The notes below the pieces were generated by a model, which saw only the letters and a program-made list of their open reading frames with translations, was not told the DNA's origin and made no database searches. This document shows, piece after piece, positions 1-62,483 of a DNA stretch of 64,000 nucleotides (its first letter is position 1; every line of letters begins with the position of its first letter). The translations under genes were made by a program, and so were the position numbers. The DNA is from Moniliella sp. 'wahieum' (Eukaryota), in contig RSEE01000010.1 of the NCBI GenBank assembly GCA_003971905.1, positions 310,001-374,000 on the forward strand, in the 5' to 3' direction.

Positions 1-210
1 TTGGCCAACGTCCCTTCAGTTCCTCCTCAGGCCTAGGAGCTCCGTTGTCTTCTCTCTCCTGTTTTTCCTTGTCCCGTAGCTTAGCCTCTGGTGGCGACTC
101 GCTGTTTGATGTTCCTCTGTAGCCAGGTGTTGCTCGTTGGCTTAGTCCCCCCCCACCACCAGTGCAATTGCATCACCCTCGAGGACCATCCGGACTGCCA
201 GGTCTCATCA
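1..210 (-). mobile_element. LTR of a retrotransposon family (partial; 3' end lies left of the window)
   Basis: Reverse complement matches 1788-2020 and 30691-30927 along its length. It starts TGATGAGACC at 210 on the minus strand. Confidence 0.85.
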
Positions 211-449
211 CACTCGCCACGTGCCAAGGACGACACGGAGTTGGTTTATAACATTTCGGGGATGCTTATACCGGCCACATGTACAACTTCCCAGTAGGGT
301 TACTACCGCAGCACCAGTAACAGTGGCGCTGTGACAAATTAATTGCGCTGAGCGGCTGAACATTGAAGCAACCCTATTTTGTCTGGGCGCGCACCGAGTC
401 GAGTTGCGTGGCTGCTGCGCTCGTCGTTTCCCCCCCAGCACTTAACAAG

Positions 450-1787: not shown

Positions 1788-2020
1788 TGATGAGACCTGG
1801 AGTCAAGAAGGTTCGTCGAGGGTGATGCATTCGCACTGGTGGGGTGGTCTAAGCCAACCAGCAACGCATACAGAGGAACATCAAGCAGCGAGTCGCCACC
1901 AAGGCATAAGTTGCGGAACAAGGAAAAACAGGAGAGAGAGATAAGGGAACTCCCAGGCCAGGGCCTGAGGAGGAACTGAAGGGACATTGGCCAAAGCACG
2001 AGTCACCCAATGGCTCAACA
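1788..2020 (+). mobile_element. Solo LTR, 233 bp, with perfect 5 bp TSD GCTCT
   Basis: Ends TGATGAG...CTCAACA (TG..CA, near-inverted 7-mers). GCTCT at 1783-1787 and 2021-2025. Homologous copies elsewhere in the window. Confidence 0.92.
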
Positions 2021-2447
2021 GCTCTACTTCCGTAAGATATTATGACCCAACTCTTAACTGGTATCATCCTGGGGCGTACAGAAACACATTGCCAACAGGA
2101 TGAACCATTCATTGCCAGAGAATTGTGCTCACCTGTGGTCATGCGAATCATGTTTCCACCCTGCTTCGAGCTGTGGCAACATGGTCATGGATGGGTCAGC
2201 ACAAGCCCTGGCTATGAGCATCGACTCTCGATAGTGTGTACTACACGATATATTGGAAGAATGAGAGTGTAGTAGCGCGTACCAAAAAAGGTCGTCGATC
2301 GTAGTATTGCGATCACTGTCAAAGCCCTGCAGTGAATATAATTGACAAAATCAGGTGAGAGTAACTCGACAAGCGGAGGGGTGAGACAGGCTAAACCACA
2401 ACAAGAGAATCAGAGAAGAAGCGAGAGTAGCTCAAAAAGGTATCTCC

Positions 2448-5055: not shown

Positions 5056-8000
5056 GGCGGAGGAAAAAAGTGGGAGCTGGAGGTGGTGGTCAAGCGGGGA
5101 AATGCAGAATGACTGGCTGTAACTGCAGGTTATACATGGGGCCGCAGATGCCCTGTTGGGCAGGGGAGAGCAGATCGAGCCGGACGGATGTGGGATAGGC
5201 TGGTATGGCGGGATACGCTCTGGCAGGCACACCCCGTCAGGAAGGAGGGTCTGGGATGGCTGGTACGTACTCAGCCATGATGCATGATGCATCGTACTTG
5301 ATGCATGATACTGAGCAACTGAGGTACGGAGTCGGAGTGCTAACTAGTGAGTACGAGGTACTGAGTTGGGCCCTGTTGCGCCCGCTTACCCCGCGCTGCC
5401 ATCAGTAGTCCCGGTATTCAGCCGATTGGCTCGGTACGCCCAGCTCGCGTGGGTCGCATCACCCGCACGGCGTCTGTGTATGTGCACCATATGGCCGAAG
5501 GCTTCTGATTCTGGAATATCCTGTGTTGCGGCGTGGTGCATTGCTGGGCATGGCGCCGGTGTCACCAAGCGATGGTGTATCTCAACAACCACCCATCCTC
5601 ACACTGCTCTGCTGGTGCCCTCACCGCTTCCCCTGGCTGGCTGGTCTAGCCCGACGAAAATCACAGGGTCCACGTCACCGTGTCACCGTGGTCACCGTAG
5701 CGAGTCACAGGGGGTCGTCACGCTGCTGTCACGAGTGAGCGGCACGAAGGCAGTATGTGGCACTCAGAAGGGGCGCCACATGGTCTTCCACTTCGCCCCA
5801 TTTGTCCGTTTCCACCCCGTGCTCCCGCGCGCGGGGCACACCAGAGCACACCAGGGCATGGCACACCGCTGGCACATCGGGGCGAGCAGGTGCCCCAGAC
5901 CATTTTGCCGAGGCCAGCAACGGACGCTCGGCCAGGACAGTCCAGCGTAGATCCATCGTCTGCGGTGGCGCAGGTGCCGCCCTCGGCATCGCGGCTCACG
6001 CGCTCAGGCACCTCTCGTGGTTGCAGATGTTAACTTGTATGATGCAGACGGCGATTTTCATGTCGCCTATACGCTAGGCATGCAAGATCATATTCACATT
6101 GCATCCTATGGTTCCATCGCAAAAGTAAACTCAAACCCTCCACTGGAAGGTTGCTCTGGCGTGCTGTGGCGTGCTCTGGGGCCATCCTTCCCGTCTACTG
6201 AGGCCCCTGAGGCCTGAGGCCGAGGCCTGAGGTCCTGAGGGCTAGTTCTGACTTCTGACTAGTGACTAGGACTCTTGCGTTTCACGGTGCTCTCAGTGTT
6301 CGGTTGCCAAATTTCAAACTTTTTGCGGGGAGCTTCACAAGCTTCACACTCCTTAGATGTGACATGTGACATGCGAAGCTTGAAGCGTGAATTATAAATG
6401 GGGTTTTAAACCAATAGCGGTGCTTGAAAAGCCCCACTCGAATTGGGCTAGTCCTGGCCTGTCTTGGCCTGTCCTGGCTGTAGTCGTGGAGTGGCAGTGA
6501 CATGTGACATGTGACATGTTTTGTCATGTATTCCCACAGTGCTGCTAGATGTGTCCGGGAGCACTTTTGTTGTAGTAGACACATGTCTGGTGTACACACA
6601 TGCCAACACACATCTCATCTACCCAAAATGGTCCTATACCTGCCCCACCATTTTGCATGATGCATGAAGAAACTTGAAGCCTTGAAGCTGAAGCCTGGCA
6701 GCTCTCCGTCTTGGTGGATTGCATCCATTCTCTCTCTCTCCCCATAGTGTGTACCTGAGCAATGGGCAATGGGCCCGCGTGGAACCGCGTATATATATAA
6801 GCAGCGTGTTTTTGCCCCACTTTTTCAGCCATGTGTCTGGCTACTGTGGTGTGCGTATCTCTGTCTCCATACTGCAACCATATTTATTGACAGAGAGCTT
6901 AAGGCTGGGACAAAGAAACGCTTCGCCTAAACCGAGCCGTTCATCCGGCGTGTGTTGCTTAGTTGTTAGCTGTTAGCGCCAACCCCGTTTAAGGAACCAG
7001 GGAAATCGCCCACAGGAGATCGGGACCCTCCCATGCCCGTCATCCGTTCCCATACCGAGAGGTAGCGCATGTGGGTACGGATGAACGTGTTAGACACATC
7101 CAAGCGGTAAATTATCTTCATTGAGACCCTCTTAATTCCTTCCAGTACCAAGCATCTTCCCTGCTGGCTTGGTGGCATAGTATCCTCGCGTCGTCAAAAC
7201 CAAAGGGGAAAAGAGTGTTCTTCAGTGCGTCCTTTGGACTTGGCGTTCTTGTCCGCTCTCCTTGTTCCATCAGCCCAAGCAGCTCCTTCTCCTGGTGTTC
7301 CAAAGGCGTCGCAGTGATCTCTTGTCACTAGTCACTACCACCTTCCGGGTGGCAACCAGCGCCTCCTGTTTTCCCGCGGCGCGCAGCGTGTGTATAAAAG
7401 AGAGCATGATATGCATGACCTACTTGTTTAGGCTTACCACCAAGCGCAGTCCAGCGAACCAGTCTACCGTATTGGCGATACCAGCAGGACCGATGGCCGA
7501 TGCAAACCGTAACTGTGGTGGCGCACCAAGACCGGTGGAACAGTGGTTACGGTGGTTCCAAAGTGTGCAGCGACAGGAGCACCCACTCTGCGCACCCAAC
7601 CGAGGCACCCAGACGGGGCGCCACCAAGAGGAAGGGGCCAGTCCTCAATCGACACTCCGTCTCCCTCTCTCCTTCTGATCCTCTGTGCGACACACCACAG
7701 CCATGTGTTTCCCTGTTACTGACTCCCGAAAACTGTGTACCATGCCACGGTGAATATCATGGAACGTTACCCTATGTTTTGCATGCTGGAGTGAAGGTTT
7801 TTGTGGACGATGGGACGGTAGACAGCGTTGAGGATGGGAAAAGAGCGCCTGCTATGGAAAGGTGGACCAGCGGAGAAGGAAGGCCGTGGACCGTCACCAT
7901 CAGCTAGAGATGACACAGGCTGGGACGGAGCCCGAGCAGACCGGGCCGTCCCCTCGTTATTGGTGATAAAATTAGGCCTCTCCCGCTTGGATCGATGGAC

Positions 8001-13239: not shown

Positions 13240-14438
13240 GCCGCACGTGGTGGAAAAGAAAGTGGCGATGGTGGTATTCGCTTGGGATTTGGTGAGTCGA
13301 GCGGACCAACACGGACTTTTGTGGTGTTGGAAAAAAAACCTTGCGGTCGTGACTGACACATTGCATGCGGAGCGCCTGCCCTGTGCTGCCGGATCCATGA
13401 TCATCGCATCGATCAAGTCCGTGCTCGCAATGGTGTAGGGTTATGGCAATCTATATCTAAGTGCATGGCAATGATATCATTTCCGAAGAGCGAGATGGCA
13501 GTGCTACACCAACCACCCTTGCCCTACCCTCTTGCGCCTGCAGTCGTTTGTAGCGGGTTTCGCACCACTTGTAGCTGGTAGTACCTTCAGCAGTTCTGTA
13601 CGCCCGGCGCCTTGTCCTGGTGCCCAAAAATCAGCTTAATCGGAGTGTGTGAACGACGGGGATGAGCAAAGAGGAAACATATGCGCAGTGGACGGCAGTA
13701 AATTTTTGAAAGGTGAGATCTGAGAGGGCAAGCATTTGCGGCCGTGTGTAGTATGCACCCGTTTCAAGAATCGTTTTCTTGAGGACATATGGGTCCATCT
13801 GCTGAATGGAATGCGCCAACTATACAAGCTTGGATCTCGCACAAATTATTGTATGGTGGAAAGCCCACAGACACCAGTGCTCCCATATGGCACGACTAGA
13901 GTGTTGTGTGCCCATCAGGTTTTGTCACAGAATTGAACTCACTACCTGACGAGCGCTGAGGACAACACGGAACAGCACTCTGTAGTAAATCCGGTAAAAG
14001 CTGTAGATGAAACCGTTGCGAGCGCGTGAGAGGTCAGCCTGATGTCGCATAATGACCTCACCCCGCTCGAGAGACACTCCATAACACCGGCAACGGATAT
14101 GAAGTTGGCTTGAATGGACCGGATATGACTCTGACTCAGTCTTCCCCCGCTTGGAGACAAGAAAAACGTGACGACATAGCTAATCGAAATTTCTAGTCAC
14201 AACGTTGCCGCCGATCTCGCCTCAAGGTGAGAAATTGATACCGTGAGTCTATGATTAGAAGTGCCACAACCCTGTACAAGAAAAGCTTGCGCAAGATGGT
14301 CGCCAAGGTCGAGACAATCTATACCCGACAGCTTGGCCCCAGGTTACCCCCACCTATCCCCACCTATCCCCGGACAGTCCGCAGCCTTGCTGGCAGGCTG
14401 GTGGCAAGGCTAGCCACAGATATTTTCACTAGGCTGGC

Positions 14439-14496
14439 GGCTAGGGTGGTGGCTAGGGTGGTGGCTAGGGTGGTGGCTAGGGTGATGGCTAGGGTG
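14439..14496 (+). repeat. Subterminal 12 bp tandem repeat (GGCTAGGGTGGT) x ~5
   Basis: Read directly from the sequence; about 260 bp inside the left TIR. Confidence 0.9.
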
Positions 14497-21511: not shown

Positions 21512-23704
21512 CGGTGGTGGGCCACACGGAGGGGAGGGTGGGTGCGTAGATGTATGCGAGAGGCTACGCTAGTCGAGTGGTGGTGGTGGCGTTGGGCGCT
21601 TCGCCTGAGCCTAAGCTCTAAGATCTAAGGCCGGGCCGCGGCCTACCGCGGCGCAGCAGAGTGACGGCATGGAACCTGGCGCGTGCAAAATTGAAACTAT
21701 TCGTCCTGTCATTTAACAATTCACAGTTGCGCGCCGCCTGGGTCGTGTAACACTGCCGCACATCGTCACGCTTTCCAAGCGCAGGCCGTGAGCGTGGCGC
21801 CTCTCACCACGATGCATGATGGTACTTTGGCTTTACAAATACAATGGCTCGCCCCACTGGGAACATTTCCCATATCCATTCACCATATACTAGTGCAAGG
21901 GCAACAATAAAACCAAGAGATAAAACCAAGAGATGCTGTTCGTCCTGTACTAGGACGCACCGACATTGTGTCCGCTTTTGTCATGAAGCAAATCAAAATG
22001 TATACAAGGGCAGACTGTCAAAAAGAGTGGCTACTTGTATTATACCGCGCTTCAATTTCCTACGACTCTCCACATCACGCGACAGCCGCTGTGGCTCTGG
22101 GGGATTCCTCCAGAACAGTGTTCTATGCCATCGAATCTCTGATTCCATGACAGAAGGGCGTATCAGTGGATACGCGCCCCCCCCCCCCCCAACTGCCTCA
22201 GGCCTCAAGCTTCAAGTCACCGTCTCTCTCCTGCGATGTCCTGGTTCTATCTTTCCGCAAGAAGACCAGCAGCAACGTCCTAGTCGCATCATGCATCATG
22301 CACCACCCATCAGTTCAGACAACATGATGCATTGCATTTGCATGACAATATTTGTTTCTTCGTCCCACACACGGTACTATATTCGGCACGCAGCATCACA
22401 TGCCATTTTCGTTTGACGACTTTTGCGCGCGTTCAACTGGTCACCGTGACCGTGGCCTGCCAACATGTCAGCTACCAACCTGACCAACCCGGTCAACTGA
22501 CCTTTCCATGAACACCTTTTCTCTCCTCCGGCCTTGCATCAGTGCATCAGCTCGAGAGAGGGAAGCCGCGCCCTACCGGCTACCAGAGGAGCGTGCTGAG
22601 ACCTAGCCGACGCGTCGACGCGTGAACGCCTCAACGTTCAGCACGTTCAACATTCAATATTCAACGTTCGACACGTCCAACGTTGAACATCCCGTGAACT
22701 GCCATGCTATGATGAAAAGACCATGCTTGAGACGTTTTGGCTTGGTTTTGCTCCATGGGGTGGGTTGGCGTGGCTTTTGTTGACTGGGTGATCCTTCGAC
22801 TAAAGACTCGGCTGCATTAGCATTAGTGACCGGCTCTTGTGCATGTGAAAAGCCGTGACGCGTGACGCGTGACGGTGAGCTGGGCGGGTGCTTTTCATGG
22901 CTGGTTTGCGAGTTGCTTGCCATCAGACGCGTCCCAAAAGGATGGAGGATGCCAACCTCAGCTGGATACTTGTAGCACTGGCACTGAAGCTTGAAGCCTC
23001 ACTGGGGCCTGAGGGATCGATAAAGCTAGTCAGGTCGATCGGAACAAGGACAGGGACAAGAACATGAGACGGGTGTTGGGGCACGTCAAAAGACACCGCG
23101 GCGGCGAATCCAACACGTGTGGTCACCAGTGTCACGTGACGCGTTCGGGGGCAGGTGACAGTGACAGTGACATGTGATGTTGGTGTCACAGTGGGCCAGT
23201 GGCGGGCGCTGCGTTGGCAGGCGCTGCGCGTTGCTCCGCGGTGGATAGTGGGCAGCGGCGATGGCTGGCGCGGAGCGAACGGCGAGCACAGCCGCCAGGC
23301 AGCCCCTTGCAGCTTGCAGCCCTCGCGCCTGGCAGCCCTTTTGCGGCGAGAGAGGCGTGTGGCGGATTAGCTAAGAGCGCGTCCGCGTGGCTGGGCATTC
23401 AATTCCAGTTCCATCTGGCGCTTGCGCGGCGCAGCGCTGGCGTGGCCGCATGCTGAACGTTGAACGTCAACTACTGAACGTTCAAGTGCGTGCCGCACGC
23501 AGCGTTGAAGTTCAACTGGACGCGCAGCCAACAAGCCAGCACAAGCCCCGCCAGCGTCCGCTCGCCACACACGCCGCCGCCGACACCAGCAGACCGACAG
23601 CCACGCGGCAGCCCTTGGTGCCCTCGCCTCGCCCCCGCTCTCCGCCTCCTCTCCACCACCCCGTGCGCGAGTGCAAGCGCGGCCCGCGCACCGCTCGCAC
23701 ACCC

Positions 23705-26700
23705 ATGGACTCGCCCACAGGCGATGTACGCGCCTGGGGCCATGCCGAGGTCCGTGTCTGGCTCCACCGCCTCGGCCTGGCCGGGTATGCGCCCCTGTTC
23801 GCCCGCCATGACCTCACCGGCGCCGTCTTGCCCGACGTCACACGCCCCATGCTCCGTTCCATCGGCGTTGAGCGTGTCGGCGACCAGCTCCGCCTCGCTG
23901 CCGCCATCCAAGCCCTCCGCAACCCACACCCTCCTCCGCCCCCCCCCCCCCCCTCCACGCCCCGATCGGCGCGCCCACACCCCAGCCACTCCCGACGATG
24001 GCGCCTGGGACGACACGATCGAAGTCCTTGACCCCGATCTCGCCTGGGCCCCCGACCCCCACCCCCCATCCTGCCTGCTGCCCCCAGCCCCGACATGTTT
24101 GATCCTCTTGGCACGCGCCGATCCAATACCCCCACTTCTGTCCCTGGCAGCCCCGCCGCCGCTGCCAGCGCTACCCTCGATGGCCCCGCTACCCCCGACA
24201 GTCTTGCAAGTCACAGCTCCTCTCCCCTCCTCACACGCACCCCGGCTGGGATGAGTGCCAGGCGTCTGGGAGGATCTCGCCCTCCGCCCCTTCATCTGGC
24301 CCAAAGCTCCGCTTCTGCACTCCCGCCCGCTGCTAGGTACCCAGCCGTCACCCCTTCTCGCACTCACACCCGCGGCCATTCCGCCACTCCCGGTAGTGGC
24401 GGGGAGGCCACCTTCACTCCGATTCGCTCCCACTCCCCGCGTCTGGCTCGCGGTCCCACCCACACAACATGTTGCGCTTCCCCGCCCCGACCAACGTCCC
24501 TCCCAATTCTGGAGGCTCGACTTCGGGAGACTCCCTTCGGAACACTAGCTCGACTGTGCTCGGGGGGCGTATCGCGGCCTGGTTCAGCACCAGGGGTCAG
24601 CCTTCACCCCGCTGGGCATGCTTCTTCGTCCTCAACGCACTTGCCCCCGCCTCAGATGGCTTACCACCCTTCTCCACCTGCTCATCCCCACTCGTCCCCT
24701 ACCTCGCAGATTCCCATGGGGGGTGCACTGCATCCTCCCATCCCAGTCTCTGGCTCCTCCTATTCGATCTCGACTTCCACGTTCCCCTGGGATCTACCCC
24801 ACACGCCCACCTCAGCGCCCGACACAGGTTTGGGCGCATCGTACGAGTCGCCCGACCGCCCGGGCTCGGCATCGGGCCGCATCACTCCGCGGTTGCACAG
24901 GGCCGGATCGGCATTGGGAAGCAGCTACTTACTCCGCGGTCTAACTCACCCGACCCCAGGACCCAGCCCCCCCCATCACTTCCACCCCTACCCTCGAAGA
25001 TCTGCAGCGACGCACCATGAAGTTTGTCTCGGCCGATGGTGCAAGCCGGATGGTGACCGTGTCGGACTGCCACGATGCCAGCGAGGTGATGGGTCGTGTT
25101 CTCCGCAAGTTTGGAGTGCCGGCCCAAGGAAATGGGTATGCGCTTGGGTCGCCCTTGACTGCCAATCCATCTGGTACGACAGCAGTCGAAGGGGAAACCT
25201 GGCGTGTGGCGGCACGCATGCCCGAAGGTCAGACTCGCTTGTTAGAGGCTGATGAGCTCCTTGCCATTTGTCAAGGCGCGCCGGTGCACGATCGTGCCAT
25301 GGGTCTCCTTCTCGTCTGCCTCCACCCGGGGCCGGGACCATTGAGTAGCTCTGCCTCAATCGCTGTCGCGCCTGCTCCCTCAGCAAGTTTGGATCTCAAC
25401 CGAAGCGACAGTGCGATGGCTACCTCGTCTCTTGATGGGCTGGTGTAACGCCTACTGTCAGTCTGGGGGATGATCTGGCCTGGCGGTCAGGAGCCGATAC
25501 ACCTGCCCTTCCAACCCCCACCCGCGAAGTGTGGGGTCAAGGTACAACCAGTCCATGGATCCAGACGAGAATGATACGTCGGACATCATCAATCCTCTGG
25601 AGCCTGCGCTGCGTGTGGAACCGAACGTGTCCAATGGTACGCCGCGCCGGCCGCGTGGAATGAGCAAGTTGGAGGCCTTCTTTGGCGTACGCCCTGATAC
25701 ATTCGAACTGGCCAGTGTAGGCGCAACCCAGGCCAAACTGGAAGGCGCTACGGAGGACAAGGCGCCTACCAATTACCCAACATTGCACCGGGCGAGACGG
25801 TTCGTGGGGCAGCGTCCCTCTAGCGAGCTCATCTCGTCTCATTTGGCCGATTACTTCCCAGCAACGGAGAAGAGAGTGCTGCAGCGCTCAGCCCGGCGGA
25901 GCATGCACCGCTCCTCCATGTATCAAGATCGTTCCCTAACTCCGCCAGGCGAGAATGAAGAGGATACCGCTCAGCCCCCTACGCTGCCTCCGATTCCTTC
26001 GCCGGGGGACGGATGGGCTCAGCACCTCCTTGCTGTCAGCAATGGCGATACTTCTACTTCGGCCATAGGCTCTTCAAACCAGGCTGGCGACCCGTCCTCA
26101 CCTTTCCGCCATCCATTTGCCTCCTCTCGGACAGCCTCGGGTAGCTCGGCCACCAACGTGAAACGGGGCGGCGAGGACCACGACTCGCCGAGCATGCACG
26201 ACCCCATATCGCCCTCGGTGGATCAGGGGGGGAATATTTCGGTTACAGATGCGCCTGCCTTGCCTGTCCCTCCTCCACCCCCTGGTCTTCGCATGCGCCG
26301 CTCCGGGGAATCAATGCGCTCGCGTCCGCACAGCCGTCGAACCTCCATCCTTTCGTCCCACTCGGACACGGCCTCGCTTATGACGGTTGACGAGATCACG
26401 CTAGAAGTGGAGTCGCGCCGAGAAGCGGGGCTCGATACTGAGTTTGACCTGTCTTCTCGGCGGAGTGAGGACCGCCGTAAAAGTATACGGTCAACTCGCA
26501 GTTCACGCTCGCTCAAGTCCAAGCGGTCCCGGCCTCGCTCGCCACTGCATGGCCCCCGTCTATCCACCTCTATGGTCTTGGTTCGAGAAGAGGAGCCAAG
26601 CACACCTGCTACTTCCCACCCCCCCGACGAGATTGCTACACCAACAACAGCAACCCTGTCGTCGCTTCCCCCTTTGACCTCCGAGCCGCTCGCCCCCCGC

Positions 26701-28669: not shown

Positions 28670-30489
28670 CGTGCTGGAAGGGTAATGCGGTAACGGGGGA
28701 CGGAAGGGGTAAGAGACAGAGGGGGGCAGGGGAGGGGTGCGGGAAAGGTCCAGAACAGGTGGGCGTACCCTGGCTTATATAGATGTGGAGCGATCGGTTT
28801 CCGCGTAGATCGTGCCCGGCGGCCCCCCGTCCCAGCCGGCAAGATAAGCCGCGTCACGCCTCCGGTGGAGAGCGGCGGGGGCGTGCCGGTCCCGAGCATG
28901 ACGTCACGCTATTACCTAATTAGTGAGGTCTGTGCACGCTGGCAACCCCTGGCAGCCCCCCCGCAGGCGGAATTGCGGGCGAACGCAATGGTTACCAGTT
29001 ACAGCTTCAATATTCAATTCAACATTCAACATTCAATCCGCTACGGCCTTCGGCCCCACAGATGCTCCGATTCAGACGACACTTCCTCCCCCATCCCACC
29101 GTCATCGTCATTGCAATTCATGCTCCCCGCTCCATGATGCACGATGCGCGCAAGTCGTCAGGAAGGGACGTGTAACGTGGATCTTTAAATAGCACCGTGC
29201 AATCGCGACGCGCGTGTGTGTGTATTATCGGGGAGAGGGACGGATCGTAGCCGCGAGGGATCGTCTCAGGCGCCATGATCGATGATCGATGATCGGTACC
29301 CGTCATGGCTCGCTTCCGGGCGCATGTGCCTTGTGGGATATGCTGATAGACAGCCACCCGACGCGCCAACAGCATTGGCAAGGAGGGAAAACTGTAAAAT
29401 GCTAGGCAAAAACGAGATGTTCTCGCGTCCTATTATTACATGTACAGACGAATGAAGACCTTTTACTGATCGAGCTGGTGAACGTGAAGTGCGAAGAACT
29501 ACGAAGGATAGGATCGAATCGCATGTCGTATGCGCCATATTATTACTCTCGTTGGATACGACTGGAACCTCTCCCCCACCCGGGCCCGGACTTCTTCCCG
29601 CCCAACTGTACAGAAGGCAAGAAGGGCACTGTCATGGGGGGGGTCCCGAGGTGGGACCCCCCCTGTAATAGAAGGTGGAAGGGCGAGAGAGGAACTGGTA
29701 GTCGAGGAGACCAACGGTAAGAGACAGAATGGTTGACAAGGACCACAGCTAGTAAGCCTTAGACATTATGGCTGCTTATATACCGCAGAAGGAACCAGGC
29801 CCTAAGCGCCTCATGATAGGTATAGACAGAATGCGGGGCACTTCCCAGAAAGGTAAAGACTAATGCACAGCCCTTGCTTCCCAAGGTGCTGACGCTGCGC
29901 AGTCGGGCGCAGCAGGAAGGATTCTGACAAGACTGGACGCAATAGGCACAAAGCATCGTACCGCTGAGCCCATGCGACCACGGCGGGCCGCGGATGATAT
30001 CCGCAGCAAGGATAAGGGTGGCTCTTTCTCGCTAGTCTAACCGGACTGACGCATGTTGGGCTGCGATGTCTACGACATGCGGGGCTCAGCGTCCGGAGAT
30101 AACCCGAGCGCTCCGTAACATTCCCAGACAAGTATTGTGGGACCTCACTATAGGGTGGTGGCACCGGTGGCCAAAAGCGTGGTTCCCTTTTCGGGACATT
30201 CCTTCCAATATTACTTCCTGGAGAGGGCAGAAATATTGTCTAGTCTCTGTGGCTCGTGTGCAGTGCAATATACACCATCAAGACGCTCAACGTTCAACTG
30301 AACAGCTTGCTCTCTCCGGCCTTCTACAGGTATATAATGTGTGCGGGTCTTATTCATTTCCTGTACTGTAGGCCATATATGCGCCCTATTCATGCGGTCC
30401 GTTCAAGTCTACAAAAGCTCTGTTTTGGTTACCGCATAGGCGGCAACGTTTTGAAGCTTGAGTCCTTGAAGCTTGAAAAGAGAGTTGAA

Positions 30490-31002
30490 CGTCGAGCCAC
30501 CGAACTTGCGTGTTTGGCCAAAAGGTCCCTTCAGCCCCGTCATCGACCTTGGCATCTCAGATCTCAGACCTCATCAGGCCTATGAGTTCCGGTTTTCTCG
30601 CTTCTGTCTTCCTGAATTGTCCTATAACCTCTATATAGACCCTGGTGGCGATCGACTGCTTCATTCTGTAGGTGTTCCTCGTTGGGTAGATGATGAGACC
30701 TGGAGTCCAGATGGTCCTCGAGGGTGATGCAATCGCACTAGTGGTGGTGGTGGTGGTCTAAGCCAACCAGCAACGCCTACAGAGGAACATCAAGCAGCGA
30801 GTCGCCACCAGGGGCTAAGCTGCGGAACAAGGAAAAACAGGATATAGAAAAACAACGGAACTCCTAGGCCTGTGAGGAGGAACTGAAGGGACATTGGCCA
30901 AAGCACGAGCCACCTGATGGCTCAACAGTAGGCTATCACACAGCTACTATAGTGCGATTGCATCACCCTGGATGACCATCATCAGGACTCCAGGACTCGT
31001 CA
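30490..31002 (-). mobile_element. Older degenerate LTR of the same family, split by a younger LTR insertion
   Basis: 30490-30690 matches the reverse complement of the LTR 3' part. 30928-31002 matches the 5' part (AGTGCGATTGCATCACCCT...CAGGACTCGTCA). Confidence 0.75.
30691..30927 (+). mobile_element. Solo LTR, 237 bp, TSD GTAGA/GTAGG
   Basis: TGATGAG...CTCAACA ends. Highly similar to 1788-2020. Flanks 30686-30690 and 30928-30932 match at 4 of 5 bases. Confidence 0.9.
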
Positions 31003-38074: not shown

Positions 38075-39723
38075 GGTGGATGGTTGGTGGTCTGCGAAAC
38101 GCGCACGCTTGAGATGGGGTGGTGGCAAGCGAGGAGTGCGGCGCCGTCTCTTTTGGGTCTTGTTGCGCATTGCGCCACAGCCGCAGCGCGATGCCCGCAC
38201 CGAAGCGAGCCATAAGCACCGCATTTGCCCTGTGGCAGGCGCAGTGCCCCGGCTGCCCCGCACCGCCGCATCCTCCTCCATCCGTGCGAGAGGCGGGGCG
38301 TCCGCAGCGGAGCAGTGTGGCTGTGGCCTCTCGTTGCCGCGTATCCGGCGACGCTTAGCCCCAGGAGTCCAGCGTCCATCGACCAGGATTGCATCTATGC
38401 GTCATGCGTCATGCATCATGGACCACAACTCAGTCGCCCGCAAAAGGTGTATATAAAGCACGCATCATGCGTGGGATCCAAGATCTAAGTCTCTGAGAGG
38501 CCTGCGTCGGGGATCCGGTGACCCACCATGCATCAGTGCATCACCCATGTCGCTGTGGGCGACGGTACCATCACCGTAACCCGTCACCAGCCTTACTGGA
38601 TAAACTACCAGAAGCCCATCCTAGTCGCGCACACCTCTGCAGGGGGCGAAGAGGAGGAAGGTGTGGCGTTTTGATGGCAGAACTGATGGATTAAGCGAAA
38701 CTTATTGTAGCACTGAGTACTGAATGAAAGTGGGGTAGTCTCAGCACAACTCTTCTTTTCATTCATCTCAATCCCCTCTCAATCTCAAGTGACGTTCAAC
38801 TGAGCGTTCAACAAGTTCAATGTTCAACTTGAACTCGCAACTACATCTCCCTCCGACAAACATACCGCATTGTTTGTCCATTTGTTTACGTCGGAGACCT
38901 TTCGCTTGAAACCTTCCACGTAGAAGAAGGACTACAAGGCATCGTGCTCCAGTAAAAGGTGACGAGGTGCCACAGTGATGACATGCCAGACATGTCAGGC
39001 CTCACAGTCTGAGGACCGAGCCTCAGGGCCTCAGGGCCTCAGACCTCAGTATGCTATGAAGCTTGAAGAGCATAGAAGAAGGGGATCGGAGAGATCCGAG
39101 TGTGGCTGACACGCTGAAGGGTGGAACGCGCCCATGTCACAGTGCCACTCAAAAAGCACTCTACTATCTCCGCTGTGCTGTCTACGCGAGAGACTGTGAC
39201 ATGTGGCATGTGAACTGTGAACTCACAGCGCGGGGGCGGAGCGCCTTTAAGCTCTAAGCTTCACGGCCGGGATGCCGTTGGGTCGGAACCAGGCACCAGC
39301 CGTTTTATGCGGCAGGCTGGGCAAACGGACAGATAATGTGCAACTGTCGATAATCGACTCGATAACGGCTGTGCGAGCATCGGCCATCGGGTGGTTGCAG
39401 TCCTTGGCGCGCCCCAAGCGAGGGTGGCGCGGGGAACGCGGGTAGAGGCCCGGCGACTGATAGATCAACATTGCAATTTTTTTGTCGGTTGCCAGCTGCT
39501 GGTCACGATTAACTTTGCTGCGGGGTGGGACGTTGGATGCTGGTCAAGACGGCCTGGACAGCGAGCCTGATATTGATACCTGTACTTACCCATCGACGGA
39601 TAATCCTATTCCAGATCCCAGCCAGCTGCTTCCCCACTCCAGTGTCTCTGCCACCGCCTCCGTAGCAACCACTCTGCCGCCTCGCGGCCCGTCGTGCCGA
39701 CGTGCTCTGGGTGCAGTCCGCCG

Positions 39724-43520: not shown

Positions 43521-43549
43521 TTGCGCCGTCGGATTGGCTTGTGGATAGC

Positions 43550-43601
43550 TGTGTACTATGTACTGTGTACTATGTACTGTGTACTGTGTACTGTGTACTG
43601 T
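43550..43601. repeat. 7-mer microsatellite (T[G/A]TGTAC) x ~7
   Basis: TGTGTACTATGTACTGTGTACTATGTACTGTGTACTGTGTACTGTGTAC between convergent 3' ends. Confidence 0.92.
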
Positions 43602-43984
43602 GAATGTACGTTTGCAAGATATTGAGCATGCGACCTAGAGAGGCAAATGGCATAGACCACACAGGAGATGAGAGAGCACCACAAGTTAAACACAGAAGCG
43701 AGAAAGAAGAAATGGGTGAGAAAGGAAAGGGGAGAGTAAAATGGAAAGGGATGAACTTGTGGAAGAGAAGGTAGAAAGAGAAACAGGCAAGAAAGGCGCA
43801 AGAACCGTTGCAATGAACGGTATGAACAACCCAGATTCCAGGGTAAGAGATGATCGCTGAGGCACAGTTGCAATGACGTCCCAAAATGAGCCGGAAGGGA
43901 AGGGGCATGAGGCTAATTGGGCGGGGGGAGGGGGGTCTAGAGGAGATGGGCGAAAAGGCCAAAAACGTGCACGGATGTAAGGGA

Positions 43985-46137: not shown

Positions 46138-48949
46138 AGTGGAAGCGACTCGAGGGTAGGGTAGGGTGGGGAGAGGAGGCGGTGAAGGCAGGGGGTGGGG
46201 GGCATGGCACGCGCACCGACGCGCGCAGACGAGGGGAGAGGGGGGGAGGAGGAGGAGGAAGAGGAGGAGAAAAAGGTGGCGGTGGTGGGATGGGAGGAGG
46301 AGGGGGAGGGGGTGGCGGGCCACCAACCAACTAATCCTGCGATACCTTACCGTCCTGGTCGGCTGGAGCGCCGACCCGACGGATGAAAAGAAATCATCGA
46401 TGGCTACATGACTCGTGAAGATGACTATCATCGATCACCGGTGCAGAGTGGGAAAAAACAGGTGTGGGGCCGGTAGTGCAAACTGTAAGCTGCAAATCAC
46501 CCGTGTCACCGGTGAACACCCGAATGGCCCAGAGGCAGAGGATAGCTCGTGTATAGTCACCGGTCACCGGTCACCAGCCACCTGTCGCAAGTCATCGTAA
46601 CGGGGTAAGGCCGGTAACCGACCGGTATAGCCGACAAGCGGCAACCACGTGAGCTGCCCAAGCGCCAACGCTGCCCACAGAAACTGGCTTTTTGTCCGCC
46701 GATATTGGCGGACCTGCAGGTGGGCAGGCGCGGTGTTTGCGTCCTGAGGCCTCGCTTCCTGCCTCGTCCCAAGGCCTTAACCGCTGCCCATCTGAACGTG
46801 AGGTTGAACGTTGGTTGAGGCCCGTGGTGCTGAGGGAGGCCAGCGCGTTATTGCAAGACTAATAAGAGGCAAGACGCCTGTGATTTGATGTGATTAATGA
46901 TTCTGCCGGCGCTGAACGCGTGAACGCACTGAACGTGCGACGTACGAACGTACGTTGAATGTCCCCCGATTGTGATCGATGTGATCTCCCCGTGGGGGTA
47001 CCCGGGCCAACAGGAGGGGCACAGGACCAGCGGGAGGGAGGCACCGTGCCACCACTGCCTCAAACTTTCCCAGCTTCAACGTCTTCAACAGGTTCCAACG
47101 CCTCCAAAGTTCGACCCAACCGCGGCTGCGAGTCACTGTGGAGAAAATGTGGGGGAGCTTTTAGGGCAGAGGGCGAGGGCAGGGGTGAGTGCATGCGAGG
47201 ACATACGGCATACCGGCCATACCAGACACCCGATATGTCAGTGAGATCTGAATCTCAGATCCCATTCCAATGCACCGGCTAATAGGAATCACCTTCTAGT
47301 AAGTTTTGGTACAGTGTGGGTGGCGTGGTGTGGGCTACGCGCTACACGTTATTAGTAAAAACACTTTCGTATCAAAACATGTTATTTTGCCCCGGCTCAC
47401 AGGCTCAGTGCTCGCTCAGTGCTGGATCCATCAGCTGCCGACGGCGTCTGCTCTCGTGCTCCCGGTCGGCTCTGCTTAAGAAATCAACCGTACTGACCGT
47501 TACGCGTTATAGACCCCACGCCCTTCCGGATCCCACTGTAGCCACTTGCCTGCCACTCCTCAGGCGAAAGACCTAAGACCTTGCAGCGCTAATGGGCCTA
47601 ACGCCGGTCGACGTTCCCAAGCGGGCTGTGGCGAGGGAGCACTCGTCGTCACGCGTCAGCGCTCAGCTGGCATATAACTTCTTGCTGGTTACTGTCGCAG
47701 TTTCTGCCGGGGCGCTGCAAGAGGCAAGAGGCAACCGGTAAGTGCCAAGAGCCAAGAGCTAAGATCGAAGAGACGGTCTCCTGCCTTCTCCAGCGCACAA
47801 GCCACTGTGTTGGGCGTGCGTATACGTAGGCTGCTCGGCCGCTGCCTGCTTTGCTGGTTGGTGGATACAGGCGCAGGGCGCAGGGCCCACAACGCTGCAT
47901 GTGGGGGCCGGGGGATCACACAATACATCACACGTTCCACATCACGCGTAACATATAACACCCTACTGGGGCCTTTGCAGCATTGCGTTCAAGCTGAAAC
48001 GTAAAACTGTGCATACCATCAGTGTGATGCGACGCTACACGGCCCTCCCCCTCGTCCTCCGTATCAGTCTACCCGTCTCTCCTCCGATCGCAGAGGGCAG
48101 GCCTTCTGCCTGATCCGCATGGCCCAATCCCCCAGCCACACGAGAAGCACATTACGTGGCACGTCCATCCCTTCCCTGGCGTTAAGCTTAGCTTCATTAG
48201 CTTCATTTCCCTCCCGTTTGCCCATCTGCATCACCGGGGGAAAGGCCGGTTACTATTACTAGCTTTACTAGTCACGGTCACTAGTCACTGGTCACTGGGT
48301 CGCTGGCACCTTTCCCATGGGTCTCATGATCTCATCTATCTCACGATCTCATCATCGATCGAATGGCTGGGTAGGTCTACGTAGGGATGCTTCGCGCTTC
48401 TCCGCGATCCCCTCGTCGTTCCTCCAGCTCGCATGGATTTCCCGCGATATACGATACTTTATCCGCGTACCATTGTGCATGAGGCTCATGAGTCTCAGGC
48501 ATGACGCAGACGCATGAACAAACAACTTGGAGCCTCGCCCTGCCTCGCGACAGCCACAGCCTGGTTTGTATCGACAGTGTCTCGACAGGTCTCAACTCGG
48601 TCTGAGTTCTGAGCCTACTCAGACTCACTCAGACTCAGTGCCCCGCGTGTACCACCTTTACTCACTCAACGAGACAACCCCCCCGCCGCGGTTGTTTATT
48701 GTGGACACCAGCTCCCCCTCGTCCCAACCTCCATCTTCGCCCCGTCCCGCTCTCGGAGTCAGTCCTCCAGCCCTTACTCTAGCTAACCCTTCTCATCCCA
48801 TCCACCGCGCCCACCCGAGTCGGGTTTTGGTGCGTGTGGCTGGCTGGCTGAACGGCTGGCTAGCAATTTCGTACACCTTGTCGACATGTCCAACCGGGGT
48901 ACGACGATAGAATTTCTGGATACCACTATTCCCCACCCACGCGTGCGCA

Positions 48950-57140: not shown

Positions 57141-57764
57141 GGTGTGAGTGGGGCAGGGGGCGCAGCGGCGGCGTGCTGGCGTCGAAGCGTATCGGGTATC
57201 CGGGGGAGGTGAGTGCTGATGCGTTGAGCGTGGGCGTGACGGCGTGGGGGTCTCCACCGCAGGGTTAGGAGGATCCGCCCGCGCGCCACATCGGTGCATC
57301 CCGCAGGCAATCATAATCAGCCGGCGCAGCACATCGGAATGCAGCCACGCAGACTCCGCCTCCTCCTGTCCAGGCCAGCCGACCGTACCATCGAGCTGAC
57401 CCTCTGATGTCATCGACCGCAGCAACCCAATTCCGCCCGGTACACTGAGCCAGCTTGATGAATTGATTGTTCGCCGCCGATGCATGATGCACTGACGCGT
57501 GATTAATGATTGACGATTCGAGTAGCCAGCGAGTGATCTGTCGCGCTAGTCACGTGCTTCTGGCCCCTGATCCTGTGCATGCGACGTGTGGCGGCAGGAG
57601 GCGGGACTGCTTCAAGTTTCAGGCTCAGGGAGCTTCAGGTGCAAACGGAATGTGAGTGTGACAAAAGTGACACTGGTTTATCACCTGACATGCTGACGCG
57701 GGACATGTGAAACTAGCAGAGACGTGACGCGCGTGACGCGTGATGGAGTTTGAAAAGTGAAATT

Positions 57765-58027
57765 TGAGGAGGTCGGAGTCCTGCATAGTCCTGAGGCCCG
57801 GAGGTCTGAGGGAGGCCTGAGGCCGGATGCAAACGTCCTCCTCCTTTACAACAACGCCTACAGAGAGCATCAAGCAGCCAGTCGCCCCCAGGAGCTAGGT
57901 TGTGGAACAAAGAAAACTGAAGCGAAAAAGCAACGGAACTCCTAGGCCTGAGGCCTGAGAGGGACTGAAGCTTGAAGCTTGAAGGAAGGGACGTATCTAG
58001 TTGGCCAAAACATACGGTGGCTCAGCA
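57765..58027 (+). mobile_element. Degenerate LTR of the same family, with internal heptamer expansions
   Basis: CAACGCCTACAGAG..CATCAAGCAGC.AGTCGCC.CCAGG.GCTA..GGAACAA..CAACGGAACTCCTAGGCCTGAG..TTGGCCAAA..GGCTCAGCA. Left boundary approximate; no TSD seen. Confidence 0.78.
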
Positions 58028-58933
58028 GGGTTAGCGCGTGACGGGTGGGTGCGTGATATGGTGCTCTGACGGTCACGCCCTTCACATGTGATGCTTGCGC
58101 AGCGACAGACACTGTTTGGCAGTTGGTGACTACTGTGACTAGGCGGCAGGTGACAAGGTGACTAGGTGACCGGCGTCTTCGTGACATGTGACATGTGACA
58201 GGTTTTGGTCCGGTGACGCGGTGACGCGACGTGTGACATGTGACGAGCGAATGGCTAGGGTGTCGAATTAAGAATTGGGCCTTGGGGCCGCTGGCTGGGT
58301 TGGGGCTGGGCCGAGCAGCGCAACTTGCTACGGCGCTGCACAGCACAGACACCGGGCGAGCGTCCACCAGCCGTCGGGGGGGCTGCGACCTCGGGGCCTA
58401 GCTGGCCTCGCAGGGCGTCGCAGCACCCGCACCAGTACCCAGTGTGAATTGCTAGGTGGCTACCGGTATAGCTTCGAGCAGTACATCCCGCTTCCCGTAT
58501 CCACTGTGGCCTACTGCTGCGCACTTGCTCACCCACTGACGCATGATCGATGATCCCGCAGTTCAGTAGACGGGCGCATCATGCATCATGCATCATGCCC
58601 ATCATGCGTCCCCACCCCATCCCACATCCCGCATTGCATCATGCATCACATGCGTCACCGCGTCACCATCCCCCGGGCGCGCAGACAGTGTTGAATTTTG
58701 CAATGTTGCACGTGTGAACGTCACTGGCGGAGTACGGCCGTACTGAACGTGCATCCAGCGTGCAGAACACTGAACGTCTGAACAGCGGCCACTGCGTCAC
58801 TCGTCGCTGTGCCCGTCGCTGGCCGGAGTAGGGCGGAGGCCCAGGCCAGGACAGCAGCATGTGCGACAGCTACTCTGCCAAGCCGCTTGGTTGACTGGCC
58901 TGCCTGCCCGTCTGTCTTGGGCCCCAACGTTAA

Positions 58934-61460
<2,527 letters not shown>

Positions 61461-62483
61461 GCCCCCCGTCGACTCAGCACGGTAGCCCTCGACAGGTCCC
61501 GCGACGTTCGTGCTGTGATCGCTGGTGTGACCAGTATGATCTGCGCCAGTGGCGCCCCCAATCTTTTTCGCCATGGTCCTCCAAGGACAACCATATGAAG
61601 GGGATCCGGTGTTGCGGTTCCCCTGTACGTCATCGGATTGCGCTAGATGCGTTGCATCGTACGTGTGGGTTGTGAGCGCTCTGCAGGCGTATTCTCATTT
61701 TACCGGTTACCCCCGCCCCTGTTCTTGTGACATGTGACGAGAGACGGGCGCGGATTCGTTTCCTTCTTCCATATCCTTCCCCACCCTTTCCTTTCTTTTC
61801 GTTTCTTTCCTCCGTTTCCCACGCCCCTTTCGTTGTCGGGAGCCTTCGTGCGGACACGCGGCTTCCCCATTTTGTATCATAGTAGCACTGCGTCCCCTCC
61901 CAAGTGGCATCACACACCTTCGATATGCTGGCACGAGAAGAGTGCGCTATAGCGAGCTACCTTGTGTGTTGCACCTCGGAAGCTTTTGCCCATGCAGACC
62001 GGTGCCGTTCGTCCAACGTTGTACAGCCTGTGCTGCTGGCGGCAGGATAGGCAAACGAAATCGGAGAGACGAGACGGGCAGGCGTGTTTTGCCTTGGCCG
62101 TGGCCGACGAGGCCACCTGAGAAGCGTGCTCCGCTAGGGGTGGCTTTCAAATTTCACTGGGGACGTGACGCATGATGGCCACGTGCGGCGCGTGACATGT
62201 GACGTGCGGGTAGGCTGCGGCTTTCATTCCGATCGAAAGGGCGCGCGTGCGGCCACAACACAGGGCACGTGACTAGATGGGCACGGGGGCAGTGGCGTGC
62301 GCGAATTGCGTCTGCGCGCGGGCGACAGGCCGCGACAGGAGGATGGCTGCGCGACGGAGGGTGAAGCTGAAGGCGAGCCGTCGCTTCAACTGGAAGCGCA
62401 CGCGTGACGGCGGCGGCTGCCATCCTGCCACCGCTGCGCTCCGCTCGGCTGCCTCTGCACCCCGTCGGCTCCGTCGGCTAGCT

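Follow-up and report, generated by a model that had tools for sequence, protein, structure and literature searches.

The 64,000-nucleotide stretch of the Moniliella sp. 'wahieum' genome analysed here (contig RSEE01000010.1, positions 310,001 to 374,000; the window, numbered from its first base) carries dozens of short arrays in which the trinucleotide TGA or TCA, written TSA for T(C/G)A, recurs every 7 bp around a 4-nt palindrome. These arrays are mutational scars; they are neither slippage products nor conserved motifs. With ab and xy denoting the dinucleotides to the left and right of a TSA, an event at ab-TSA-xy adds 7 bp and yields either ab TSA xy.y'x' TSA xy (a right event) or ab TSA b'a'.ab TSA xy (a left event). 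Each event consists of a 5-bp direct copy and the 2-nt inverted complement of one flank, and the TSA itself is carried over in direct orientation, central base included. Both kinds of event appear to have acted on the array at 22196 to 22216, whose letters the initial annotation read exactly (Table 1); its layout suggests an ancestral heptamer CC-TCA-AG that underwent a left event (spacer GGCC) and a right event (spacer AGCT).

Palindromic spacers in excess of chance

In the window, the 4-nt spacer is palindromic in 37 of 58 TGA-N4-TGA pairs and in 22 of 38 TCA-N4-TCA pairs, compared with 98 of 1,624 (6%) for the other trinucleotides pooled. When spacer lengths of 0 to 12 were scanned, palindromes were enriched at length 4 only and between trinucleotides with the same central base only (59 of 96). 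Pairs of opposite centre (TGA..TCA and TCA..TGA) separated by 4 nt were palindromic in 3 of 21 cases, and spacers of 2, 5, and 6 nt were palindromic at or under the chance level. The 7 palindromes among the 60 spacers of length 11 are three-unit arrays.

Two hundred dinucleotide-preserving shuffles of the window contained 33.7 ± 5.7 TSA-N4-TSA pairs (96 observed), with 2.1 ± 1.4 palindromic pairs per shuffle and a maximum of 7 (59 observed). Nonpalindromic pairs stood at the baseline (37 observed versus about 32 in shuffles). A control of 446 kb of unrelated metagenome sequence, made up of 80 distant, mostly short loci carrying VCX1-like relatives with 34 to 58% protein identity, had 10 palindromic spacers out of 160 (6%), and the flanks matched in 1 of those 10. 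Because both the shuffles and the unrelated loci stay at chance, the excess of roughly 60 pairs, which is nearly all palindromic, is a property of this genome. The length classes in excess were the 4-nt spacers (96 versus about 34 shuffled) and, less so, the 5-nt spacers (57).

Flanks predict the spacer in single events

The 59 palindromic pairs fall into 49 arrays, 39 with a single event and 10 with two. Among the single events, the flank equals half of the spacer on the right only in 13, on the left only in 11, on both sides in 5, and on neither side in 10, so that at least one flank fits in 29 of 39. Permuting spacers among arrays 2,000 times gave a mean of 5.6 arrays with a flank match and a maximum of 13. 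The initial annotation had listed ten arrays as obeying the flank rule (at 6256, 22985, 23454, 29007, 29276, 38714, 46557, 46891, 57966, and 58182), all of which do, and three exceptions (22631, 30452, and 57758), in none of which does either flank match the spacer. When the 24 one-sided events were brought to one orientation, the central base was C in 14 and G in 10, with no strand asymmetry.

An alternative hypothesis is that the arrays arose by microsatellite slippage or by tandem duplication of existing palindromic heptamers, possibly kept as sites for dimeric transcription factors. The arrays do lie in promoter-bearing regions, some 7-bp tandem repeats without a TSA occur, and a plain 7-bp copy is also compatible with 7 of the 24 one-sided cases and with every one of the 5 two-sided ones. 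However, among the 24 one-sided events the match at period 7 spans 5 bases in 8, 6 bases in 9, 7 bases in 6, and 9 bases in 1; the 17 that share just 5 or 6 bases are not plain 7-bp tandem duplications. In these 17, a TSA and two flanking bases are copied directly, with the inverted complement of the two bases in between, in agreement with the initial annotation. The baseline level of nonpalindromic pairs also counts against slippage, as does the variety of spacers: of 16 possible 4-nt palindromes, 15 occur, at rates that roughly track the background frequency of TSAxy and with no base preference evident beyond TSA, and no single DNA-binding protein would select these.

Two-event arrays and regeneration of the target

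Seven of the ten two-event arrays repeat one palindrome, and three carry two different palindromes. Were each regenerated TSA open to a hit from the left or the right, a second event could take four forms, three of them giving a homogeneous array and the fourth giving ab TSA [b'a'ab] TSA [xyy'x'] TSA xy. The observed 7:3 is near the predicted 3:1, as would follow from new TSA sites being open to further events, and it bears out the earlier suggestion that the target is regenerated so that arrays can grow. The exact predicted mixed form occurs in two of the three heterogeneous arrays, at 22196 to 22216 and 47647 to 47667, and half of it occurs in the third (Table 1). Each of the two palindromes in a mixed array is predicted by its own flank, an arrangement that slippage does not provide.

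The array at 22985 (22985 to 23001) and positions 22198 to 22211 of the mixed array at 22196 are 14-nt inverted copies with one mismatch, 800 bp apart and each bordered by TCA; they are probably convergent products of one process and not the ends of an element. A homopolymer run of 14 C bases at 22177 to 22190 ends 5 bp upstream of the same mixed array, and another of 15 lies at 23939 to 23953. Positions 57723 to 57743 read CGTGACGCG CGTGACGCG TGA, with a 6-nt palindromic spacer (CGCGCG) beside a 4-nt one (CGCG) within a single array.

Ancestral state in a dispersed repeat

The state of two sites before the events could be read from paralogous copies of a dispersed repeat within this one genome, which gives from paralogs the sort of evidence that the initial annotation sought from strains. 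The family is MITE-like (resembling a miniature inverted-repeat transposable element) and is present in four copies, A to D (Table 1), of which A and B match at about 93% and D has diverged much further. In the alignment, copies A, B, and C read ...GGAAC TGA AG GGAC..., and copy D reads ...GGGAC TGA AGCT TGA AGCT TGA AG GAAGGGAC..., as two right events would produce. The CT of TGAAG-CT-TGAAG in copy D is the inverted complement of AG and is not in the ancestral ACTGAAGGG of the other three copies. Since these hold one AC TGA AG, the CT in copy D is new sequence, which again argues against slippage.

At the second site, copy C has a single CC TGA GG where copy D carries a 4-nt palindrome between two TGAs. 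Three of the four copies differ at this GGCC TGA GG site by a small insertion, of +2 (TG) in B, +6 (AGGGCC) in A, and +6/7 in D; the site is a local hotspot for indels, and not every outcome there is of the +7 type.

The duplication rule put forward in the initial annotation, TSA.xy -> TSA.xy.y'x'.TSA.xy acting on either side of a site, is thus upheld by the right-to-left ratio of 13:11, the nontandem one-sided events, the mixed arrays, and the ancestral state in the paralogs. By the same observations slippage is largely refuted, and we regard it as very improbable.

Target specificity and minor product classes

A 12-nt signature of the rule, sought at all trinucleotides, matched 106 times, of which 62 were at TGA or TCA. 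Many of the other 44 matches are alternate registers of TSA arrays or belong to one (CTGTGTA)n microsatellite; by our own count and estimate, about 25 are neither, with about 8 expected. The trinucleotides TTA and TAA (TWA) had 3 matches on 662 sites versus 62 on 2,003 TSA sites, about 7-fold lower per site. The microsatellite, (CTGTGTA) x7.7 at 43549 to 43602, is a 7-bp repeat without a TSA that can be read as TGT + GTAC and is the source of several non-TSA matches.

Two minor classes stand out among the 37 nonpalindromic spacers. Four are "direct" (right flank followed by left flank, which makes the array a plain duplication of abTSAxy; about 0.14 expected), at 6249, at 39211, and in two decayed arrays. 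Two are "hybrid" (complement of the left flank followed by complement of the right flank; about 0.14 expected), at 22647 and 62166 (Table 1). In terms of the hairpins discussed below, two spacers fit an opening 1 nt off the tip, one of which (38402) doubles as direct, and the class with an inverted central base, which would correspond to an opening 4 nt off the tip, has a flank match in 0 of 3 cases.

The 57 pairs with a 5-nt spacer are a modest excess, and 18 of them consist of a 4-nt palindrome and one additional base, a minor +8 class. Palindromes with a free centre account for 5 of these 57 spacers, and 1 of 54 6-nt spacers is palindromic; both are chance levels. Target duplications of 8 and 9 bp, and with them the trimmed 9-bp variant that the initial annotation had allowed for, are thus unsupported and were set aside. 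TGA/TCA arrays of period 8 occur at 39020 to 39042, 58148 to 58170, 58211 to 58228, 58652 to 58667, 22535 to 22550, and 38527 to 38543 (e.g., GCCTCAGG x2.9 and CGGTGACG x2.2), and an identical 17-mer, CATGCATCAGTGCATCA, is present at 22530 and 38527.

A candidate excision mechanism

We tentatively postulate that the arrays are left by a low-copy cut-and-paste element that duplicates a 7-bp, TSA-centred target and whose excision makes scars through hairpins and a mismatched lap joint; this may well be their origin, although our confidence falls somewhat short of an even chance. The palindrome axes lie just outside xy in right events and just outside ab in left events. If hairpins are involved, an axis shows where the flank met the excised DNA, and the duplicated target would therefore be the 7-bp abTSAxy, symmetric about its centre. 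The logic of the two axes thus supports the NN-TSA-NN target of the initial annotation, and such symmetry would suit a dimeric enzyme.

The element would insert through a 7-bp staggered cut centred on TSA, and about 7-fold less often per site on TWA, to give abTSAxy[element]abTSAxy. On excision, nicked exactly at the border, both flanks would be left as even-tipped hairpins. Each hairpin would then be opened 2 nt 3' of its tip (or 3 nt, with the same product since T pairs with A), which would produce two 4-nt palindromic 3' overhangs, xyy'x' and b'a'ab. These overhangs of equal length would be overlaid and both strands ligated without gaps, and replication or repair would resolve the 4-bp heteroduplex into a right or a left product. 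More generally, an opening n nucleotides from the tip would leave an overhang of 2n and always add 7 bp: n = 0 would give the direct spacer, n = 1 would give xyy'b or xa'ab, n = 2 and n = 3 would coincide, and n = 4 would invert the centre. The spacers seen are dominated by the class n = 2/3, with few of n = 0 or 1 and zero rule-obeying cases of n = 4; an opening 4 nt off the tip was rejected accordingly.

Under this proposal, the length would be fixed at +7, right and left events would be near 1:1, and the TSA would stay intact because equal overhangs are overlaid and the heteroduplex is resolved whole. The rare direct (xyab) and hybrid (b'a'y'x') spacers would be mosaics due to patchy heteroduplex repair. 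The element could stay at low copy number and leave one scar per hop, and by a rough estimate 1e-5 to 1e-4 hops per generation would be enough. Parts of this scheme have precedents. Fungi repair transposon excision sites via hairpins, P nucleotides, and end joining (PMC5873905), and 7-bp target duplications occur in basidiomycete DNA transposons, namely hAT7 in rusts and Kyakuja in Laccaria (PMC12730594). Kyakuja (KDZ, Agaricomycotina) is akin to the proposed element in host phylum and duplication length, and none was seen in the window.

Comparison with known systems

hAT elements (Ac/Ds and Hermes) prefer promoters and open chromatin, and their excision resembles the proposed process in that hairpins on the flanks lead to short palindromic additions beside retained target duplications. 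The array palindromes differ in being exactly 4 nt and even-centred, whereas the Ac-type additions described in PMC5873905 are centred on the complement of the element-adjacent base and come with deletions and many variants. The array target also has a fixed central TSA, an excess is found only at +7 (large) and +8 (small), and no hAT gene or element is present in the window. The period of 7, in place of the 8 bp of hAT elements, is compatible solely with the hAT7 subgroup (7 bp in rusts; PMC12730594). Nor do the arrays resemble products of MULEs, which have a 9-bp duplication (range, 7 to 11 bp): there is no period-9 excess, and 6-nt spacers are palindromic at the chance level noted above. 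The pattern thus behaves like a hairpin/P-nucleotide scar, but a classical hAT or MULE origin fits it poorly.

Tc1/mariner footprints consist of TA, 3 nt of the element end, and TA, forming 7-bp odd palindromes in which a central mismatch gives either base. They differ from the arrays in that TA is duplicated directly and the 3 nt derive from the element; the arrays have a preexisting TSA at the unduplicated site, followed by any dinucleotide and its inverted complement, and their flanks are inverted complements and not direct repeats. A mariner-type scar, with a 4-bp palindromic duplication and 3 nt of element end, was rejected since the unduplicated site is already a TSA without a palindrome. 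Three further models were set aside. With hairpins, a 3-bp (PIF-like) duplication should leave TSA-TSA or TSA-TS'A pairs side by side, and such pairs show no excess; one break at the central base, with a hairpin forming on each side of it, predicts hybrid spacers only, of which two exist; and topoisomerase I prefers W-S-W-T, whereas the base after TSA is unconstrained.

The RAG/Transib system makes even-tipped hairpins that are opened about 2 nt off-centre, which gives 4-nt palindromic overhangs. Together with the 5-bp direct repeat in the arrays, equal to the Transib duplication, this raises the possibility that the same scars come from a 5-bp target duplication (TSAxy or abTSA), with excision leaving exactly 2 P nucleotides on the TSA-distal flank and zero on the opposite one. 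We consider this quite unlikely. Hairpins would have to be processed strictly on one side and the target would have to be read in both orientations, and by our derivation a symmetric opening 2 nt off the tip would destroy the second TSA. The scheme leaves the hybrid and direct spacers unexplained, the unit delimited by left and right events combined is 7 bp, and no Transib-like open reading frame (ORF) is among the 72 ORF translations scanned from the window. V(D)J and Transib joints also vary in length and usually lose bases, and the symmetry of the arrays points to 7 bp.

The very high density of events, the uniformity of their outcome, and the lack of an element in the window speak for a rival process without any mobile DNA, in which a host enzyme nicks or pauses at TSA and a short template switch or fold-back copies 2 to 3 nt and realigns on TSA. 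By our derivation, copying y'x'T and then realigning at S yields the observed product. Yet no known polymerase or nuclease has a matching TSA specificity, the realignment would rest on 1-nt homology, and any zNz' centre would be expected where the data show TSA and, weakly, TWA only. Template switching alone predicts neither the 1:1 ratio of left to right events nor the mosaic spacers, and we judge it unlikely.

Returning to the excision of an element, several observations weigh against it. Ligation over four mismatches is unusual. About one array per 360 bp of the clustered intergenic regions is high for transposon scars, and neither flank fits in the 10 single events mentioned above. In Candida albicans, Ac/Ds footprints were far less uniform than the arrays (28 types in 128 excisions) and centred on the complement of the terminal base (PMC5873905). 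The 72 ORF translations scanned contain no transposase domain (Pfam), and a search of the window for elements with terminal inverted repeats and a TSA-centred 3-, 5-, or 7-bp duplication returned arrays only. No target duplication is visible around the MITE-like copies, though their termini are TGA...TCA, which may be a coincidence (chance, about 1 in 32). The initial annotation had called for a search for inverted-repeat elements with TGA/TCA-centred duplications and for hAT or MULE transposases, and within the 64-kb window none was found. Its interpretation is thus supported in part, namely in the duplication rule and the 7-bp target. Because an element that leaves one scar per hop can be very low in copy number, its absence from 64 kb is weak counter-evidence.

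A broader version of this proposal is possible, and we hold it with more doubt: an undescribed element or transposase-derived nuclease would make the 7-bp TSA-centred cut, leave even-tipped hairpins, and be repaired by the lap joint, so that one event would give left and right alleles in the two daughters, and this process would be the main origin of indels, and of newly formed 6-bp palindromes (A-xyy'x'-T), in promoters of the lineage. In the window alone it would have written at least 59 scars into some 17 kb of intergenic sequence.

Genomic placement and age

The window is nuclear fungal DNA with a GC content of about 57%. By ORF and Pfam evidence, it encodes an OPT transporter, a C1-tetrahydrofolate synthase, a VCX1-like Ca/H exchanger, a Ste11/Byr2-like kinase, a Zn2Cys6 factor, a syntaxin, Vps54, and others. 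The closest named relative of the exchanger is in Tilletiaria anomala (63% identity), followed by other Ustilaginomycotina; the analysis placed the fungus in that group, probably among the Exobasidiomycetes.

Pfam-supported stop-to-stop ORFs, which cover 20.2 kb and 651 of the 2,003 TSA sites, hold 1 of the 59 events, at 23454 and upstream of the domain; absence from coding DNA is expected of any +7 event. The arrays cluster at 5.2 to 7.3, 22.2 to 23.5, 29.0 to 30.6, 38.4 to 39.1, 46.4 to 48.3, 57.5 to 58.7, and 61.7 to 62.2 kb. On ORF and Pfam evidence these regions are intergenic with at least one gene start, and in four of them the neighbouring genes are divergent. The list of intergenic regions was drawn with the array positions known, so that the count of 48 of 49 arrays inside them is descriptive only and the Pfam-ORF count is the independent test. 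Three apparent 3'-3' intergenic regions, which are short and rest on our own gene models, contain zero arrays. We tentatively conclude that events favour promoter-bearing intergenic DNA.

Among the 37 nonpalindromic spacers, 23 are one change off a palindrome, compared with about 15 by our own expectation. With some 8 decayed versus 59 intact scars, the scars would be young on average.

Table 1. Arrays, repeat copies, and array clusters in the window
Feature	Position	Strand	Sequence or content
Focal mixed array	22196..22216		CC TCA GGCC TCA AGCT TCA AG
Second mixed array	47647..47667		CG TCA CGCG TCA GCGC TCA GC; putative ancestor CG-TCA-GC with one left and one right event; both flanks as predicted
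Third heterogeneous array	57491..57511		AC TGA CGCG TGA TTAA TGA TT; right half fits; left AC where CG expected
Repeat copy A	1788-2021	+	
Repeat copy B	30691..30993	+	MITE-like, ~300 bp, ~50-bp imperfect terminal inverted repeats, termini TGATGAG...CTCGTCA
Repeat copy C	1-211	-	
Repeat copy D	~57849-58029	+	More diverged
Two right-type events in copy D	57964..57984		AC TGA AGCT TGA AGCT TGA AG; +14 bp versus single AC TGA AG in A, B, and C
Second site in copy D	57947..57960		CC TGA GGCC TGA GA; copy C has single CC TGA GG
GGCC TGA GG site, copy A	1945-1970		
GGCC TGA GG site, copy B	30860-30880		
GGCC TGA GG site, copy C	25-40	-	
GGCC TGA GG site, copy D	57940-57960		
Hybrid spacer	22645..22658		GT TCA AC.AT TCA AT
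Hybrid spacer	62164-62177		CG TGA CG.CA TGA TG
Cluster upstream of OPT transporter gene	5271..7334		Spacers TGCA, GGCC, CTAG, CATG
Cluster in divergent region, VCX1-like (-) and Ste11/Byr2-like kinase (+)	22286..23486		Arrays at 22289, 22631, 22654, 22856, 22985, 23168, 23454
Cluster	29007..30573		Spacers ATAT, TCGA x2, ACGT, AGCT x2, GATC
Cluster in divergent region, syntaxin and Zn2Cys6	38402..39066		Includes period-8 arrays, e.g., GCCTCAGG x2.9
Cluster	46428..48294		Spacers TCGA, CCGG x2, TTAA, GATC, CGCG/GCGC, CTAG
Cluster in divergent region, Vps54-like and kinase	57493..58648		12 arrays
Cluster	61728..62202		Three arrays, spacers CATG, AATT, CATG

Other repeats were noted in the window. 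A (TCC)n tract of about 50 units lies at 58959 to 59105 in a divergent intergenic region, and a complementary GGA-rich tract lies 12.7 kb away at 46245 to 46309. A 12-bp minisatellite, CTAGGGTGGTGG x5.7, occupies 14429 to 14496. Six copies of a 30-bp unit (80% matches) at 52540 to 52721, in a long minus-strand ORF region upstream of the Vps54 domain, are probably a coding repeat.

Implications

Full-text literature searches returned no description of TSA-centred 7-bp palindromic arrays, and we know of no report of a fungal genome in which transposon scars are the prevailing kind of small indel. What is new here is the target, geometry, uniformity, and density of scars of an excision/hairpin type, and the enzyme system itself may be new, which we take as a real possibility. 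The array signature NN-TSA-N'N' offers a means of searching other genomes for the element or nuclease behind the scars.

Should the rule extend to the whole genome, about 2 to 3% of promoter-region DNA (59 x 7 bp in 17.4 kb) would come from a single sequence-specific process. By making a new palindrome and restoring its own target at each event, this process would provide a built-in engine of regulatory variation. The arrays would also be a clean natural record of the way in which a basidiomycete opens and joins hairpin-capped breaks.

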